In this document: piece after piece, positions 9,713 to 28,327 of the stretch
Numbering within the stretch: the stretch's first letter is position 1
Layout of the letters: each line of letters begins with the position of its first letter
Source: an uncultured Planctomycetales bacterium
Lineage (GTDB): Bacteria; Planctomycetota; Phycisphaerae; UBA1845; JAFGLZ01
NCBI GenBank assembly: GCA_964622545.1
Contig: CAZUQM010000012.1
Coordinates: 92,054-156,053, forward strand
Length of the DNA: 64,000 nucleotides
Direction: 5' to 3'
Position numbers and translations under genes: made by a program
Notes under the pieces: generated by a model
Seen by the model: the letters and a program-made list of their open reading frames with translations, nothing else
What the model was told of the DNA's origin: nothing
Database searches by the model: none

Positions 9713-10729
9713 CTAGCCCTGCCCGACCACGCCCAAGCCCGGCCGATCGGTGAGCGTCAACCGGCCGCCCTCACCCCCGATGCCCGAGAACGGGTCGTTC
9801 GCGATCAACAGGTGCCCATCGAGGTCGATCCAGTCGACGAGTGGGGCGAGGTGAGCCGCCTGGGCGATGCCGAGGCTGGATTCGATCATACAACCGAGCA
9901 TGATCTTCAGATCACACGCACGTGCTAGGTGGATCATGCGAAGCGCCTGGCGAATGCCGCCGCACTTGCAGAGCTTGATGTTGATGCCGTCGACGCAACC
10001 GGCCAGGCCTACCACATCGGCGGGGCGGACGCTGCTCTCATCGGCCACGATGGGCAGCGGGCTGTCCTGGCGGACGGCGCGGAGGGTGTCGTTGTCGCCT
10101 GGGGCGATGGGCTGCTCGACGAACTCCACATCGAAGGGCTCCAGCCCGCGGATGCGAGCGACGGCGTCGTCGACCGACCAGCCGCAGTTGGCGTCGACAC
10201 GAAGCGTCTTGCCCGGGGCCGCGCGGCGGACCGCCGAGAGGATCTGCTCGTCGGCGTCCGTACCGACCTTCACCTTCAGGATGGGGTACTCGGCGGCCTC
10301 GGCGGTCTTGGCCTCGATGGTCGCGGGGTCGTCGATGCCGATGGTGAACGAGGATGTCGGGGCCGTGGCGGCGTCGAGCCCGAGGAGCCTCCACACGGGG
10401 ACGCCGAGCTTCTTGCCGACCCAATCGTGGAGGGCCCCGTCGAGAGCGGCTACGGCCGAGCGCTGGTCGTCGAAGCGGTCGAGGCAGCGTGCGAGGATCG
10501 GCTCGATCTGGAAGGGGTCGTCGCCGAGCAGGTCGGTCATGCCGGCGAAGGCGGCCTCGGCCGACTGGAGGGTCTGCCCGTAGTAGCTGGTCGGGACCGC
10601 CTCGCCGAGGCCGACGAGTCCGTCGTGCTCGAGTTCGACCACCAGGGTCTGCTTGGCCGAGATGCTCGACCTTGCGATCGTAAAGGTGTGTCGGAGAATG
10701 AGTTCTTGTCTGCGGCACGTGAGTCGCAT
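9713..10729 (-). CDS. dipeptide epimerase (enolase superfamily)
   Basis: 338-aa ORF. It shows ILKVKVG, LRVDANCGW, FVEQP and ADES metal/catalytic blocks of the L-Ala-D/L-Glu epimerase / muconate cycloisomerase family. Confidence 0.85.
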   Translation of the reverse strand: MRLTCRRQELILRHTFTIARSSISAKQTLVVELEHDGLVGLGEAVPTSYYGQTLQSAEAAFAGMTDLLGDDPFQIEPILARCLDRFDDQRSAVAALDGALHDWVGKKLGVPVWRLLGLDAATAPTSSFTIGIDDPATIEAKTAEAAEYPILKVKVGTDADEQILSAVRRAAPGKTLRVDANCGWSVDDAVARIRGLEPFDVEFVEQPIAPGDNDTLRAVRQDSPLPIVADESSVRPADVVGLAGCVDGINIKLCKCGGIRQALRMIHLARACDLKIMLGCMIESSLGIAQAAHLAPLVDWIDLDGHLLIANDPFSGIGGEGGRLTLTDRPGLGVVGQG

Positions 10730-10780
10730 GGGGTCGGTGATCCTGGAGGAGAGGTTCCGGCGAGAATCCAGCCCAAAGTA

Positions 10781-23809: not shown

Positions 23810-23883
<74 letters not shown>

Positions 23884-23973: not shown

Positions 23974-24125
23974 TTAGCCCAATCACCCTCGACTGGGGGA
24001 AGTGTAGCCCGGTCGCCCTCGACTGGGGGAAGTGTAGCCCGGTCGCCCTCGACTGGGACGGATGGGGATGAAGCTACACAGCCGGGGGCGGCTGTACCAC
24101 ATCAGCCGGGGGCGGCTGTGCTCCA
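23974..24125 (+). repeat. REP-like composite palindromic repeat cluster 0 (upstream of the RM gene)
   Basis: One degenerate plus two exact copies of GTAGCCCGGTCGCCCTCGACTGGG, with spacer GGAAGT or tail ACGGATGGGGATGAAGCTAC. Two copies of the hairpin unit (A/T)CAGCCGGGGGCGGCTGT follow. Same orientation as the intragenic clusters. Confidence 0.85.
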
Positions 24126-24235
24126 TGACGCACCGCACCCTAGGGTCCTTACGCGTTCAACCGCTTTGTCCGATTCTCGGGACGACGTTCCCGTCACGCT
24201 CGACATCCCACCGCAAATACGTAAGACTCTCCGGC

Positions 24236-27200
24236 ATGTCAGCCCAGCTATCCCCAGCATCCTTCGTCGCTAAATGGTCGGGCACGGCGCTGTCCGAACG
24301 CGCCGCCAGCCAAGAGCACTTCATCGACCTGTGCCACCTACTCGGCCAACCCACGCCGGCCGACCACGACGCCACCGGCGCCGAATACACCTTCGAGAAG
24401 TCCGTCGCCGTCACCGACGCCGCCAGCGCCGGCTCCAAGGGCGACCACGGCTTCGCCGACGTCTGGTGGAAGGGCAAGTTCGCCTGGGAGTACAAGCGCA
24501 AGGGCAAGCACAAGGACCTCACCGCCGCCTACCGCCAGCTCTGCCAATACCGCGAGGCGCTCGAGAACCCGCCGCTGCTCATCGTCAGCGACATCGCCCG
24601 AACCGAGATCCACACCAACTTCACCGGCCGGGCGAAACAGGTCCACACCATCCTGCTCGAAGACCTCGCCGAGCCCGCCTCGCTCGACCTGCTCCGCCGC
24701 GTCTTCACCGACCCGCTCTCGTTCGAGCCCGAGGTCACCGCCGAGCACGTCACCGAGGCCGTCGCCAAGGAGATCGGCCAGCTCGCCCTTCAGCTCCGCG
24801 CCCGCGGCCACGACCCGCACGACACCGCGCACTTCCTCATGAAGTCCATGTTCTGCCTCTTCGCCGAGGACATCCGGCTCCTACCGGCCGACCTGTTCCA
24901 GAAGCTCGTCGGCCAGTGGAAGTCCGACCCCCCCGAGCTGACCAAGGTGCTCACCGAGCTGTTCAGCAAGATGCAGACCGGCGGCGCGTTCGGCGTCGAC
25001 AAGATCGCCTTCTTCAACGGCGGGCTGTTCGATGACGCCCCCGCGCTCGAGCTCACCGACGACGAGGCCAACGTCCTGCTCACGGCCGCCCGGCAAGACT
25101 GGGGCAGTGTCGAGCCGGCCATCTTCGGCACGCTGTTCGAGCGATCGCTCGATCCGAACACCCGCGCCCAGATCGGCGCCCACTACACCAGCAAGGACGA
25201 CATCCTGCTCGTGGTCGAGCCCGTCGTGATGACGCCGCTCCGGCGCGAGTGGGCCGACGTCCAGGCCAAGGTCGCCGAACAACTCGAGCGCCGGGCCGCG
25301 GCCAAGACCAAACCCACGCGGACCAAGGCCGACCGCGCTATCGCTGACCTGCTCGACGGTTTCATCCATCGGCTGGCGACGGTCCGCATCCTCGACCCGG
25401 CCTGCGGCTCGGGCAACTTCCTGTACGTGGCCATTCAGCAGTTGCTCGGTCTGGAGAAAGAGGTCATCACGTACGCCGCCCGGCCCGACATAGGCCTCGG
25501 CCTGTTCCCCCAGGTCCGCCCGACGCAGTTGCACGGCATCGAGGTCAACCCCTATGCGGCCGAGCTGGCGCAGGTGGTCATCTGGATCGGATATTTGCAG
25601 TGGATGCGCGACAACGGCTTCACCGCCCCCAGCAACCCGGTGCTCGAACCGCTCCAGACCATCGAGAACCGCGATGCGATCCTCGATGTAGCCCGGTCGC
25701 CCTCGACTGGGGGAAGTGTAGCCCAGTCGCCCTCGACTGGGACGGATGGGGATGAAGCTACACAGCCGGGGGCGGCTGTACCACAACAGCCGGGGGCGGC
25801 TGTACCACAAGAAGATGTAGCCCGGTCGCCCTCGACTGGGGGAAGTGTAGCCCAGTCGCCCTCGACTGGGACGGATGGGGATGAAGCTACGCCACATCAG
25901 CCGGGGGCGGCTGTACCACATCAGCCGGGGGCGGCTGTGCCACATGAGATCCCCGATGCCAAGGGTGGCCCGGCAAGCTACCGCCGCAATCTCCCTCACA
26001 TTCAACCCGGTCAGCGTCCCGTCTTCGTCACTTTCTGCACACACAAGGGATGGGAGCTGCCTGAGTCGGTACGAGACCTGGTCATCACACACTGTCTCCA
26101 TGACGATAACTCGAAGCTGCAGATGCACGCGCTCGTCGTCATGCCAGACCACGTCCACCTACTCTTCACCCCGGGTCACGACAGCTACGGAAACCCGTAT
26201 GGACTCGCTGAGATCATGAGTGGGATCAAAGGCGCGTCAGCGCACAGTATCAACAAAGCACTGAAGCGTAAGGGACGGGTGTGGCAGGATGAGTCCTTTG
26301 ATCACATTCTCCGCCGGAACGAGAACCTCTTCGAGAAGGGGGAGTACATCTGCCAGAATCCCGTGCGAAAGGGACTCGTCCAGGATGAGAACGACTATCC
26401 CTGGTTGTGGCGCGAAAGCCATGTAGCCCAGTCGCCCTCGACTGGGACGGATGGGGATGAAGCTACACAGCCGGGGGCGGCTGTACCACAACAGCCGGGG
26501 GCGGCTGTGCCACATCAGCCGGGGGCGGCTGTGCCACATAGGCCCACTATCCCACCCTGGCCCGACGCCGACTTCATCATCGGCAACCCGCCGTTTCTCG
26601 GCTCGAAGCTGTTCCGACAGCAGGGTCTCGATGACGAGTACATCCAGGCCATGTTCGACACGTATGAGATTCCCAACACGTCCGACCTGTGCTGCTACTG
26701 GTTCGAGCGGGCGCGACAGGAACTGGAGAAGAACCCACTGCTCCGCGCCGGCCTGCTTGCCACGCAAGGCATCCGCGGCGGAGCGAACCGAAAGGTCCTC
26801 GAACGCATCGAGGACACCGGCGACATCTTCCTGGCCTGGTCGGATCGCAACTGGGTTCTGGATGGGGCTCACGTCCACGTGTCGATCGTCGGTTTCGATA
26901 ATGGCACCGAAAACGAGCGTATGCTTGACGGCAAGCCCGTTTCCGACATCAACGCCTCACTCACCGGCGACATCGACACGGGCAAGGCGAGCGCCTTGGC
27001 AGAGAACACGGGTATCGCCTTCATGGGCGATACGAAGGGCGGCAAGTTCGACATCACGTGGGACGAGGCGCGGGCGATGCTGCCGCAACCCAACCCCACC
27101 GGCAGCTTCAACTCCGAAGTCGTTCGTCCGTGGGTAAATGGGCTAGACATCACGCGACGCGCTCGCAGTATGTGGATCATCGACTTCGGCTGCGACATGC

Positions 27201-28327
27201 CCAAGGACGAAGCTGCCGGTTACGATGTGCCCTTCGGCTATGTCGAGACGCATGTCTGGCCGACACGCAAGGACAACCGACGCGCTGCTTATGCGAAGCG
27301 GTGGTGGTTGCATGTTGAACCACGACCAGAGCTGCGGCAACGAATCGCGCCATTGTCGCGCTTCCTCATTACCCCGCGGCTTACGAAATACCGACTGATT
27401 GCTTGGCACGACCAGCGAACCCTTCCCGATTGCCAAGTGATTGCCTTCGCCCGGTCCGACGACTACTTCTTCGGCGTGCTACACAGCGCGGTGCACGAGT
27501 TGTGGGCGCTTCGGATGGGCACGCAACTTGAGGACCGTCCGCGCTACACGCCGACGACGTGCTTCGAGACGTTCCCGCTGCCCTGGCCGCCGGGCGCCGA
27601 GCCCAATGTAGCCCAGTCGCCCTCGACTGGGACGGATGGGGATGAAGCTACACAGCCGGGGGCGGCTGTGCCACATCAGCCGGGGGCGGCTGTACCACAA
27701 GAAGATGTAGCCCAGTCGCCCTCGACTGGGGAAAGTGTAGCCCGGTCGCCCTCGACTGGGACGGATGGGGATGAAGATACACAGCCGGGGGCGGCTGTAC
27801 CACATCAGCCGGGGGCGGCTGTGCTACATGAGGCAGCTACCTCGCAAACCGCCGCCGCGATCCACCAGCGGATCTCCGACGCCGCGTGCGAGTTGAACGA
27901 GCAGCGCGAGCGGTGGCTCAACCCGCCGGAGTGGATCGACCCCATCGCCGAACAGGTCGACGCCGAGGACGACTTCGCCGACGTGCCGGCCGACGCCCGA
28001 CCGCTGATCCGCCATTCGGCCATCATGGCCCGGGCGGCCAAGGACGCCCGGCTCAAGAAGCGAACGCTGACGAACCTCTACAACGAGCGGCCGACGTGGC
28101 TGCGGATCGCCCACGAGAAGCTCGACCGCGCCGTCCTGGCCGCGTATGCCCACGTCGACCCCGACGGCGACTGGAGCGAAGACTGGGCCGAGGTGTGGAC
28201 CGAGACCGGCGCGGGCCAACGGCTACCCGACGACCACCCCCTCGCCGCCCGCCGCGCCGAGATCGATCAGCGGGTGCTGGCCAACCTGCTGCGAATCAAT
28301 CTCGCGAGGGCCGCAGCCCGGAGCTGA
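24236..28327 (+). CDS. MmeI-family (Type IIL) single-chain restriction-modification enzyme / N6-adenine DNA methyltransferase, carrying in-frame REP and RAYT insertions
   Basis: ORF 24062..28327. The first 58 codons are translated repeat, so the probable start is ATG 24236 (MSAQLSPASFVAKWSGTALSERAASQEHFIDLCHLLG). Family blocks: nuclease-like GFADVWWKGKFAWEYKRKG, motif I ILDPACGSGNFLY, motif IV IIGNPPFLG, RPWVNG, WIIDF, CFETFPLPWP, TLTNLYNERPTWL. Two blocks are foreign to the family, at 25688-26539 and 27608-27829. Confidence 0.75.
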   Translation: MSAQLSPASFVAKWSGTALSERAASQEHFIDLCHLLGQPTPADHDATGAEYTFEKSVAVTDAASAGSKGDHGFADVWWKGKFAWEYKRKGKHKDLTAAYRQLCQYREALENPPLLIVSDIARTEIHTNFTGRAKQVHTILLEDLAEPASLDLLRRVFTDPLSFEPEVTAEHVTEAVAKEIGQLALQLRARGHDPHDTAHFLMKSMFCLFAEDIRLLPADLFQKLVGQWKSDPPELTKVLTELFSKMQTGGAFGVDKIAFFNGGLFDDAPALELTDDEANVLLTAARQDWGSVEPAIFGTLFERSLDPNTRAQIGAHYTSKDDILLVVEPVVMTPLRREWADVQAKVAEQLERRAAAKTKPTRTKADRAIADLLDGFIHRLATVRILDPACGSGNFLYVAIQQLLGLEKEVITYAARPDIGLGLFPQVRPTQLHGIEVNPYAAELAQVVIWIGYLQWMRDNGFTAPSNPVLEPLQTIENRDAILDVARSPSTGGSVAQSPSTGTDGDEATQPGAAVPQQPGAAVPQEDVARSPSTGGSVAQSPSTGTDGDEATPHQPGAAVPHQPGAAVPHEIPDAKGGPASYRRNLPHIQPGQRPVFVTFCTHKGWELPESVRDLVITHCLHDDNSKLQMHALVVMPDHVHLLFTPGHDSYGNPYGLAEIMSGIKGASAHSINKALKRKGRVWQDESFDHILRRNENLFEKGEYICQNPVRKGLVQDENDYPWLWRESHVAQSPSTGTDGDEATQPGAAVPQQPGAAVPHQPGAAVPHRPTIPPWPDADFIIGNPPFLGSKLFRQQGLDDEYIQAMFDTYEIPNTSDLCCYWFERARQELEKNPLLRAGLLATQGIRGGANRKVLERIEDTGDIFLAWSDRNWVLDGAHVHVSIVGFDNGTENERMLDGKPVSDINASLTGDIDTGKASALAENTGIAFMGDTKGGKFDITWDEARAMLPQPNPTGSFNSEVVRPWVNGLDITRRARSMWIIDFGCDMPKDEAAGYDVPFGYVETHVWPTRKDNRRAAYAKRWWLHVEPRPELRQRIAPLSRFLITPRLTKYRLIAWHDQRTLPDCQVIAFARSDDYFFGVLHSAVHELWALRMGTQLEDRPRYTPTTCFETFPLPWPPGAEPNVAQSPSTGTDGDEATQPGAAVPHQPGAAVPQEDVAQSPSTGESVARSPSTGTDGDEDTQPGAAVPHQPGAAVLHEAATSQTAAAIHQRISDAACELNEQRERWLNPPEWIDPIAEQVDAEDDFADVPADARPLIRHSAIMARAAKDARLKKRTLTNLYNERPTWLRIAHEKLDRAVLAAYAHVDPDGDWSEDWAEVWTETGAGQRLPDDHPLAARRAEIDQRVLANLLRINLARAAARS
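25688..25945 (+). repeat. REP-like repeat cluster 1 (intragenic, 258 nt)
   Basis: Two tandem composite units. Each is a 30-nt unit, a 44-nt unit GTAGCCCAGTCGCCCTCGACTGGGACGGATGGGGATGAAGCTAC, then two 24-nt ACAGCCGGGGGCGGCTGTACCACA-type units, joined by AGAAGAT. It translates as VARSPSTGGSVAQSPSTGTDGDEATQPGAAVPQQPGAAVPQED... Confidence 0.9.
25946..26422 (+). other. REP-associated tyrosine transposase (RAYT, HUH/Y1, IS200-like) coding segment without own start or stop
   Basis: 159 codons: EIPDAKGGPASYRRNLPHIQPGQRPVFVTFCTH...ALVVMPDHVHLLFTP (the HUH motif is HVH)...GRVWQDESFDHILR...GEYICQNPVRKGLV (catalytic Tyr helix)...DYPWLWRESH. It is flanked on both sides by GTAG-hairpin repeats. Confidence 0.8.
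26423..26539 (+). repeat. REP-like repeat cluster 2 (intragenic, 117 nt)
   Basis: One 44-nt GTAG unit followed by three ACAGCCGGGGGCGGCTGT hairpin units. It translates as VAQSPSTGTDGDEATQPGAAVPQQPGAAVPHQPGAAVPH. Confidence 0.9.
27608..27829 (+). repeat. REP-like repeat cluster 3 (intragenic, 222 nt = 74 codons)
   Basis: Same composite units in the same orientation and frame. It lies between host blocks CFETFPLPWPPGAEPN and AATSQTAAAIHQRISDAACELNEQRERWLNPPEW. Confidence 0.9.

Follow-up and report, generated by a model that had tools for sequence, protein, structure and literature searches.

A RAYT transposase and its cognate REP arrays lie in frame within an MmeI-family gene of an uncultured Planctomycetales bacterium

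A stretch of 64,000 nucleotides from an uncultured Planctomycetales bacterium (contig CAZUQM010000012.1, positions 92,054 to 156,053; hereafter the window) harbours a gene for an MmeI-family restriction–modification (RM) enzyme whose single open reading frame (ORF) runs through three arrays of palindromic repeats and, between the first two, through a transposase. The repeats are repetitive extragenic palindromes (REPs) bearing a GT[AG]G tag, and the transposase is a REP-associated tyrosine transposase (RAYT); a RAYT with its cognate REP arrays makes up a REPtron. The locus is probably such a REPtron, lodged in frame in two permissive surface loops of the enzyme and accompanied by one more array upstream of the gene, with the frame kept both by the phase that ties REP to RAYT and by selection. 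Four rival explanations are weighed below and are less likely. An original prediction, made from the letters of the sequence, had overlooked the RAYT segment. Coordinates are collected in Table 1.

The host gene and its two loops

The host protein matches the Pfam models MmeI_hel, MmeI_Mtase and MmeI_TRD above cut-off; MmeI_C reaches 17.8 bits, below its cut-off of 27, and MmeI_N is present in the precomputed domain list of the protein (P0001). The motifs D-x9-EYK, DPACGSGNFL and NPPF are all present and are invariant in the alignment of homologues (A1), and an insert-free homologue, P0005, aligns to the MmeI structure 5HR4 with E=1.7e-48. The host displays the domain plan of a single-polypeptide type IIL enzyme, namely a nuclease, a helical spacer, a gamma-class N6-adenine methylase, a target-recognition domain and a C-terminal domain. 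Judged by its sequence, it is an MmeI-family enzyme.

The extra material, 358 residues comprising three arrays and the RAYT, is confined to two sites, both of which align to loops of 5HR4. Site 1 follows RDAILD in the loop just before methylase motif IV (NPPF) and holds array 1, the RAYT and array 2. Site 2 follows FETFPLPWPPGxEP (FETFPLPWPPGAEPN in the window), in the loop that joins the target-recognition domain to the C-terminal domain or helix, and holds array 3.

The transposase domain

The segment between arrays 1 and 2 scores 90.6 bits against the NCBIfam model NF047646, REP_Tyr_transpos (cut-off 80), and 26.6 bits against Pfam Y1_Tnp (cut-off 23). Its HUH motif reads HVH, and the catalytic tyrosine is found in EYICQNPVRKGL, in a Y-x3-NP motif. 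When array 1, RAYT and array 2 are modelled together with AlphaFold (AF2), the RAYT core attains predicted local distance difference test (pLDDT) values of 90-97, and the best match of the RAYT fold in the PDB is 4ER8, the E. coli TnpA-REP protein bound to a REP hairpin. By sequence and by fold, the segment encodes an intact RAYT, which may be active. The flanking REP-coded arms, with pLDDT values of 43-58, are predicted to be disordered.

The RAYT corresponds to residues 571-729 of the 1363-aa host protein and is in frame with the host on both sides. It lacks both an in-frame ATG and its own stop codon, as do the embedded RAYTs of 13 homologues. Arrays 1 and 2 abut the segment directly and thereby place cognate REPs on both flanks; the 3' end of array 2 comes directly before RPTIPPWPDADFIIGNPPF.

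Table 1. Features of the locus, in window coordinates
Feature	Position	Strand	Description
tRNA-Arg(ACG)	23810..23883	+	ARAGORN; immediately 5' of the locus
Array 0	23974..24125	+	152 nt; extragenic REP array with 30/40/24-nt modules like those of the other arrays
Host ORF	24236..28327	+	1363 aa; MmeI-family (type IIL-like) RM/DNA methyltransferase, open through all inserts
Array 1	25688..25945	+	258 nt = 86 codons; two composite units
RAYT domain	25946..26422	+	477 nt = 159 codons; NCBIfam NF047646, Pfam Y1_Tnp
Array 2	26423..26539	+	117 nt = 39 codons; one REP(+) and three REP(-) units
Array 3	27608..27829	+	222 nt = 74 codons; two composite units

The neighbours of the host gene are housekeeping genes and include, besides the tRNA, an aconitase, a nucleotidyl transferase and an ABC-2 transporter.

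The repeats are tagged REPs in two orientations

Folded as single-stranded DNA, the repeats form two hairpins, with z about -3.6 to -8.9. Hairpin A consists of a GTAG tag, which begins every copy, followed by an 8-bp stem with a 4-nt loop, and hairpin B of a 7-bp stem with a 4-nt loop. The reverse complement of hairpin B, GTGG[TC]ACAGCCG-CCCC-CGGCTGTG, aligns column for column with hairpin A. The composite unit is thus a set of REPs in opposite orientations with their tags outward, as in a bacterial interspersed mosaic element (BIME) or a REP doublet (REPIN). In array 1 the composite unit is made of REP(+) copies, GTAG-CCCRGTCG-CCCT-CGACTGGG, and then REP(-) copies, ACAGCCG-GGGG-CGGCTGT plus RCCACA.

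The stems covary between loci. Hairpin A has GTCG/CGAC in the window, GACG/CGTC in a related locus, L029, and GCCG/CGGC in another, L034, and hairpin B changes correspondingly. Across 11 unit types, a small and hand-picked sample, 100% of cells pair and compensatory changes affect 4/8 pairs. The window repeats are 24-nt GT[AG]G-tagged REPs in both orientations.

The words GTAGCCCRGTCGCCCTCGACTGGG and ACAGCCGGGGGCGGCTGT occur 11 and 13 times in the window, where shuffled sequence is expected to contain ~0 and 0.2 copies, respectively; all 24 lie on the forward strand within 23974-27829, a span of 3.9 kb. As regards genome-wide dispersal, a criterion for REPs, these 24 clustered copies, with three of the four arrays intragenic, are what the 64-kb window offers; in another Planctomycetales metagenome-assembled genome (MAG), the bipartite REP of the window is dispersed over 13 contigs, mostly between genes and with variable spacers. 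No hairpin family besides the REP pair was found in the window, and promoter and terminator scans placed neither inside the arrays.

Several candidates were set aside. The window's other repeated 14-mers arise from chance matching within G+C-rich coding sequence. Single hairpin A matches found in Brevundimonas, Streptomyces and others in a scan of a genome collection have no GT[AG]G tag or partner hairpin and were treated as chance. A 'DNRDAIE...' peptide preceding a REP at L017, taken at first for methylase site 1, belongs to an intergenic REP beside clpX. A metagenome scan yielded four loci only, each with one REP copy and with stop codons nearby in several frames, and is uninformative on reading frame.

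One open frame through every array

It had been claimed that a single forward frame of the repeats is free of stops. Six-frame translation bears this out: with the G of GTAG as codon position 1, every array is open and encodes VA[RQ]SPSTG...QPGAAVP[HQ]; each GTAG puts a TAG into the second frame, and the third meets TGA in GGATGAAG, just as had been stated. One reverse frame is also nearly stop-free, so that 2/6 frames are open. Arrays 1, 2 and 3 all occupy the open frame of the host ORF. Array 0, whose first repeat copy is degenerate, lies 5' of the host ATG and stands in the TAG frame relative to it. Both placements had been read correctly from the sequence, as had the sizes of the intragenic arrays, measured again as 258, 117 and 222 nt and all multiples of three.

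The unit sizes fared less evenly. Tandem Repeats Finder (TRF) returned the claimed periods of 30 and 24 nt. The third, of 44+7 nt, is an arbitrary split: the actual modules are the 24-nt GT[AG]G-tagged REP with a spacer, plus the REP of the opposite strand. Divisibility by three as a property of the repeat itself has to be given up. The extragenic array of a free-standing relative (L041, described below) has a period of 32 nt, intergenic spacers are variable, and array 0, at 152 nt, is not a multiple of three and lies in a stop frame; the three-fold periodicity within the gene is therefore imposed rather than intrinsic. The original prediction had also put the joint agreement of frame and length at about 1 in 80 by chance. 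A value of ~1/81 or lower is reasonable for unconstrained sequence, but it rejects only the absence of constraint.

Recurrence among MmeI homologues and in other proteins

Enzymes of the MmeI-like family are abundant in MAGs of Phycisphaerae and other Planctomycetota, where most measure ~1000 aa and have bare loops of 12 and 26 aa. The counts that follow refer to the 120 closest methyltransferase homologues. A RAYT lies inside the methylase in 14 of them, at site 1 or site 2, and is of one of two types. Type A, to which the window RAYT belongs, occupies site 1 in P0001 and site 2 in P0002, P0003 and P0004; type B, unrelated to type A, occupies site 1 in nine proteins and site 2 in P0112. The HUH and tyrosine motifs are kept in the embedded RAYTs. 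In about 20 further homologues these loops or a third site hold low-complexity inserts that resemble repeats, and approximately one quarter of the 120 have in-frame inserts in the two loops. The lengths of the arrays vary widely from one homologue to another. The RAYT-in-methylase layout is present in at least 14 independent assemblies (NCBI, ENA, JGI).

Six loci were inspected at the DNA level. Over ±10 kb around the methylase gene (64 kb in the window's case), the repeats of each are restricted to that gene. Type B loci have other hairpins, of 18 nt, CCCCGCATTCATGCGGGG and CCCGACATGAATGTCGGG, which are read in several frames, all of them open. Four homologues, P0031, P0071, P0074 and P0104, have different low-complexity inserts in the same two loops (GEGxGEG-type, HGQD-type and PEGPKD-type). 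Several unrelated repeat families appear to use the two MmeI loops.

The phenomenon extends to other hosts. An exhaustive HMMER search with the window RAYT returned, within its 150 best representatives, some dozen proteins of more than 400 aa, and ten of these (P0361, P0364, P0388, P0392, P0473, P0487, P0490, P0499, P0507 and P0509) were scanned with Pfam, at the protein level only. The proteins in which these RAYT relatives lie in frame are alanyl-tRNA synthetase (AlaRS; three cases), valyl-tRNA synthetase (ValRS), PurH, RecG, a hydantoinase, ThiE and another methylase; in P0364 Pfam detected only Y1_Tnp. The RAYT is internal in 7/10 and is terminal in the sequences listed for P0388 (ThiE) and P0473 (one of the AlaRS). 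In the RecG case the REP-coded peptide VEHPPSVA appears four times and in the methylase case VAQPPPAG...QPGAAGPQ three to four times, with arrays on both sides of the RAYT.

Phylogeny, selection and turnover

Ordinary free-standing RAYTs of 160-210 aa are numerous among the relatives of both types. In a neighbour-joining tree of 72 sequences the four embedded type A RAYTs make up a clade with no other members, and in one of 128 sequences the ten embedded type B RAYTs belong to a clade of 13 leaves. RAYT distances rise with host distances (Mantel r=0.74, p=0.001). Host segments show ratios of nonsynonymous to synonymous substitution (dN/dS) of 0.2-0.38 in all pairs of six insert-bearing genes, and for the embedded RAYTs the proportions of nonsynonymous and synonymous differences are 0.14-0.24 (pN) and 0.65-0.83 (pS). 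These low values indicate that both have evolved as coding sequence in this frame. Purifying selection acts on the host and RAYT parts alike, and the host may retain enzyme activity.

Two syntenic loci, L029 (P0003) and L030 (P0016), are 95-98% identical and differ by the RAYT plus one array, 612 nt or 204 codons. The difference in RAYT content is bounded by direct REP arrays and is consistent with loss of the RAYT by recombination between them. When L029 245-4246 is compared with L030 7440-10829, amino-acid difference amounts to 10-42% in the target-recognition domain and ~0% elsewhere, the RAYT aside. This pattern suggests a recent swap of recognition specificity, as would be expected for an active RM gene. 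At 4400-4940 of L029, 3' of the methylase stop, there is also an unrelated insertion of ~275 nt that is absent from L030; it contains a perfect tandem array of the 14-nt word GACCTTGGACTTTG (~8 copies) and an inverted repeat of CGCAAAG motifs.

Low RAYT divergence among P0041, P0050 and P0064 was considered as a sign of cassette transfer between alleles. This was rejected, as the flanking methylase core is equally similar. In pairs whose RAYTs are far more similar than their hosts, the divergence sits in the target-recognition and helical domains and not in the core flanking the insert, so that mosaic recombination of the host gene explains the similarity.

Free-standing relatives and the phase of the REPs

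In the free-standing REPtron L041 (Phycisphaerales; 10001-10780), the RAYT is flanked by arrays of the window's hairpin B in both orientations. The GTG of one GTGG-tagged REP serves as its annotated start, and the reading frame continues across downstream REPs (NNNVAQPPSAV...). More generally, 29/68 free-standing type A RAYT ORFs have the peptide (N)V[AE]QPP[PS]AV ~15-25 residues before the conserved AKPAK-YRRNLPH, and 17/68 have a similar REP-coded peptide, NV[AE]..P.PA, just after EWVEGE. It follows that a REP adjacent to a RAYT is normally phased with the ORF, the G of GT[AG]G being codon position 1, and this phase is the open frame of the window. Homology searches with the RAYT alone did not list the long fusion proteins and are unusable for counting fusions.

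In free-standing REPtrons (L041; P0121-P0240) the RAYT ORF as annotated often starts within a GTGG-tagged REP, or ahead of one, and crosses a downstream REP. In those instances the transposase ORF, as annotated, takes in the 'extragenic' palindromes.

A further observation concerns the loop of hairpin B. Every copy (for example 25897-25945 and its equivalents in L029 and L034) has a purine-rich loop, GGGG or AGGG, with a GTG 5 nt later that is in frame with the RAYT (GGGGCGGCT-GTG-CCA). The arrangement resembles a Shine-Dalgarno sequence and start codon hidden within a stem, of the kind seen in IS200 tnpA, and by that analogy the RAYT might be initiated internally at this GTG.

Explanation of the reading frame and its rivals

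In the explanation favoured here, the stop-free frame and the three-divisible lengths result from REP-RAYT phasing together with purifying selection on host and RAYT. The REPs flanking this RAYT lineage would have been phased in advance with the transposase ORF, making REP-RAYT-REP one continuous open frame. Selection on the enzyme and the RAYT would then remove insertions, array expansions and contractions that break the frame. Recombination or slippage between near-identical direct units would lengthen and shorten the arrays and eliminate the RAYT, in steps of whole units. Translation would render the whole element as a stretch of host polypeptide with disordered linkers and a folded RAYT domain, or might begin at an internal GTG; in this way the transposase would not need a stop codon and the host enzyme would be full length. 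Read-through would yield peptides such as VAQSPSTGTDGDEATQPGAAVPQQPGAAVPH and host-REP junction peptides.

Two interpretations contained in the original prediction bear on this mechanism. The first, that selection keeps the RM ORF intact, is supported by the dN/dS values of the host, by its invariant catalytic motifs and by the in-frame inserts of about a quarter of the homologues. The second, that the element is adapted to being translated in the manner of Rickettsia palindromic elements (RPEs), survives in modified form: the REPs of free-standing relatives do lie within the ORF in the same phase, one GTG tag even serving as the start, but the element is a REPtron with a RAYT and not a passive repeat of the kind of RPEs or MITEs (miniature transposable elements with inverted repeats).

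Several points weigh against a REPtron lodged in permissive loops. An insert of 284 aa right before motif IV may well impair methylation, and it is unusual for a transposase to be made as a stopless RAYT joined to 640 aa of host. The RAYT trees are neighbour-joining trees without support values, and a truly free-standing RAYT, P0245, falls inside the type B clade. Only ORFs called intact enter protein databases; frame-disrupting insertions are consequently invisible in them and the excess of in-frame cases is not quantifiable. The REP and methyltransferase copy counts for the source genome cover the 64-kb window only.

An unlikely alternative is domestication, whereby the HUH nuclease of the RAYT and its linkers have become functional parts of a new MmeI-like enzyme, for example in single-strand DNA cleavage or hairpin recognition. 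The embedded RAYTs would fit it in having no stop codon, in being under strong purifying selection with HUH and tyrosine motifs kept, in forming clades of their own and in co-diverging with the host core. Most homologues, however, have no RAYT, near-identical strains differ in its presence, and one RAYT type is found in either of two loops. Related RAYTs also reside in unrelated housekeeping proteins, and the near-identical flanking DNA repeats, with their hairpin covariation, point to constraint at the level of DNA rather than protein.

It is also highly improbable that the insert is removed before the mature protein is formed, whether because the RAYT precisely excises it from single-stranded DNA in part of the population, because RNA is processed at the REP hairpins or because the protein splices like an intein. 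RAYT and IS200-type enzymes excise hairpin-bounded single-strand DNA, an activity established for the IS200/IS605 family, and IStrons, which combine an IS605-type transposase with a group I intron, offer a precedent for a Y1-transposase element neutralised by splicing; the occurrence of related RAYTs in the essential genes for AlaRS and ValRS recalls the host spectrum of inteins. Against this, arrays and RAYT are always stop-free and divisible by three, which would be pointless in an element that is removed. Intein splicing involves an N-terminal Cys or Ser and a C-terminal His-Asn followed by Cys, Ser or Thr. The junctions in the window read ...AILD|VARS... and ...AVPH|RPTI... and have no such splice residues, and a Pfam scan of the host protein found no Hint or intein family (no Rfam search for introns was run).

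Even less credible is the proposition that the 24/30-nt arrays have been selected as tunable linkers, their copy number altering loop length, RM activity or specificity. RM genes are known targets of repeat-mediated variation, three-divisible units would make slippage frame-neutral, and array lengths do differ widely between homologues; yet REPs also occur outside the gene (array 0) and between genes in another genome, the arrays track the transposase, strain-level variation falls in the target-recognition domain and not in the loops, and the loops are predicted to be disordered and away from that domain. Least probable of all, and largely refuted already, is a recently inactivated gene with a frame surviving by chance, or an artefact of assembly or annotation: G+C of ~65% makes long spurious open frames common and the window protein is known from a single contig, but a 4.1-kb ORF traverses three arrays and a transposase with all motifs conserved, correct frame and length would coincide with a chance of ~1/81 to 1/729, and the layout recurs in independent assemblies with both components under purifying selection.

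A REPtron held in frame in permissive loops thus remains the preferred reading of the locus. A broader proposition can be advanced more tentatively: there may be a REP/RAYT lineage with an 'in-frame lodger' lifestyle, whose uninterrupted REP-RAYT-REP frame inserts in surface loops of conserved genes (MmeI-type RM enzymes, AlaRS, ValRS, PurH, RecG), uses host expression and co-diverges with its hosts over the long term, as an equivalent of inteins and IStrons without splicing.

Relation to known systems

The element shares with inteins and IStrons the persistence of a selfish element in conserved, even essential genes with the host product intact, and, through related RAYTs, a similar host spectrum (AlaRS, ValRS, PurH, RecG). 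It differs from them in having no splicing domain or junction residues, its neutrality apparently arising from in-frame read-through in a tolerant loop.

GTAG-tagged REPs were defined by Di Nocera, De Gregorio and Rocco in 2013 (PMC3733652). With these and their BIMEs the window repeats have in common the 24-nt palindrome, the 5' GT[AG]G tag, composite arrays in two orientations, association with a RAYT and in-frame copies. The same study described intragenic REPs that code in frame for 20-82 aa, especially in replication and repair genes and in Opitutus terrae, a bacterium of the Planctomycetes, Verrucomicrobia and Chlamydiae (PVC) group, so that in-frame intragenic REPs are already known; methyltransferase or restriction hosts and a RAYT inside an ORF are not mentioned there. 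The window differs in that its arrays are confined, within 64 kb, to one gene and its upstream region, in its three-divisible tandem periods and in the placement of the transposase within the host ORF.

A gene of another Planctomycetales MAG (L020; CAZKCX010000173.1, about 480-800) offers an instance of the intragenic pattern described in PMC3733652. It encodes a DnaE2-like DNA polymerase III alpha subunit with an in-frame, low-complexity insert of ~100 aa in the PHP domain, which opens with a REP in the window's frame (VPQSPSTD-VAQSPSTG...SRPRAAVPH) and continues with (A/T)QP(G/E)AQ repeats.

With the REPtron (Nunvar 2010, PMC2817692; 4ER8), the RAYT shares its HUH and tyrosine motifs, the NCBIfam assignment, the fold match to 4ER8 and REPs on both sides. 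Classical REPtrons are separate genes situated between other genes, whereas the window RAYT is an internal segment of a 1363-aa protein. RPEs likewise are palindromic repeats in frame in functional genes, translated as extra and probably surface-exposed peptides (a feature cited in PMC3733652, where RPE-4/6 are equated with intragenic REPs and placed among CGTC-tagged REPs). RPE-1, in contrast, is longer, specific to Rickettsia and has no known cognate transposase, whereas the window repeats travel with one; the resemblance is functional only. The host, likened to the MmeI type IIL RM family (PMC2582602, PMC2731913; 5HR4 in PMC4833311) by its sequence, agrees with it in Pfam domains, in the D...EXK, FxGxG-type and NPPF motifs and in a target-recognition domain that is mosaic between strains, and differs in the extra residues of its two loops.

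A literature search of incomplete coverage found no account of a RAYT nested in frame in an ORF or fused to a methylase. The in-frame nesting of a whole REPtron, its recurrence in one enzyme family and its presence in essential genes appear not to have been described before.

Implications

The two loops of MmeI-type enzymes appear to tolerate inserts of up to ~330 residues, a property useful for enzyme engineering, and the locus flags a class of 'too long' proteins that earlier surveys dropped as annotation errors. The arrangement, if confirmed, would explain the open frame of these REPs and would provide natural fusion proteins for studying RAYT activity. By definition REPs lie outside genes, and the prevailing view of RAYTs is of domesticated transposases that are immobile and present in single copy. 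A RAYT residing in the reading frame of another gene, in an arrangement that recurs in one enzyme family and appears also in essential genes, would represent a new mode of persistence, harmless to the host, for a transposase with its repeats.

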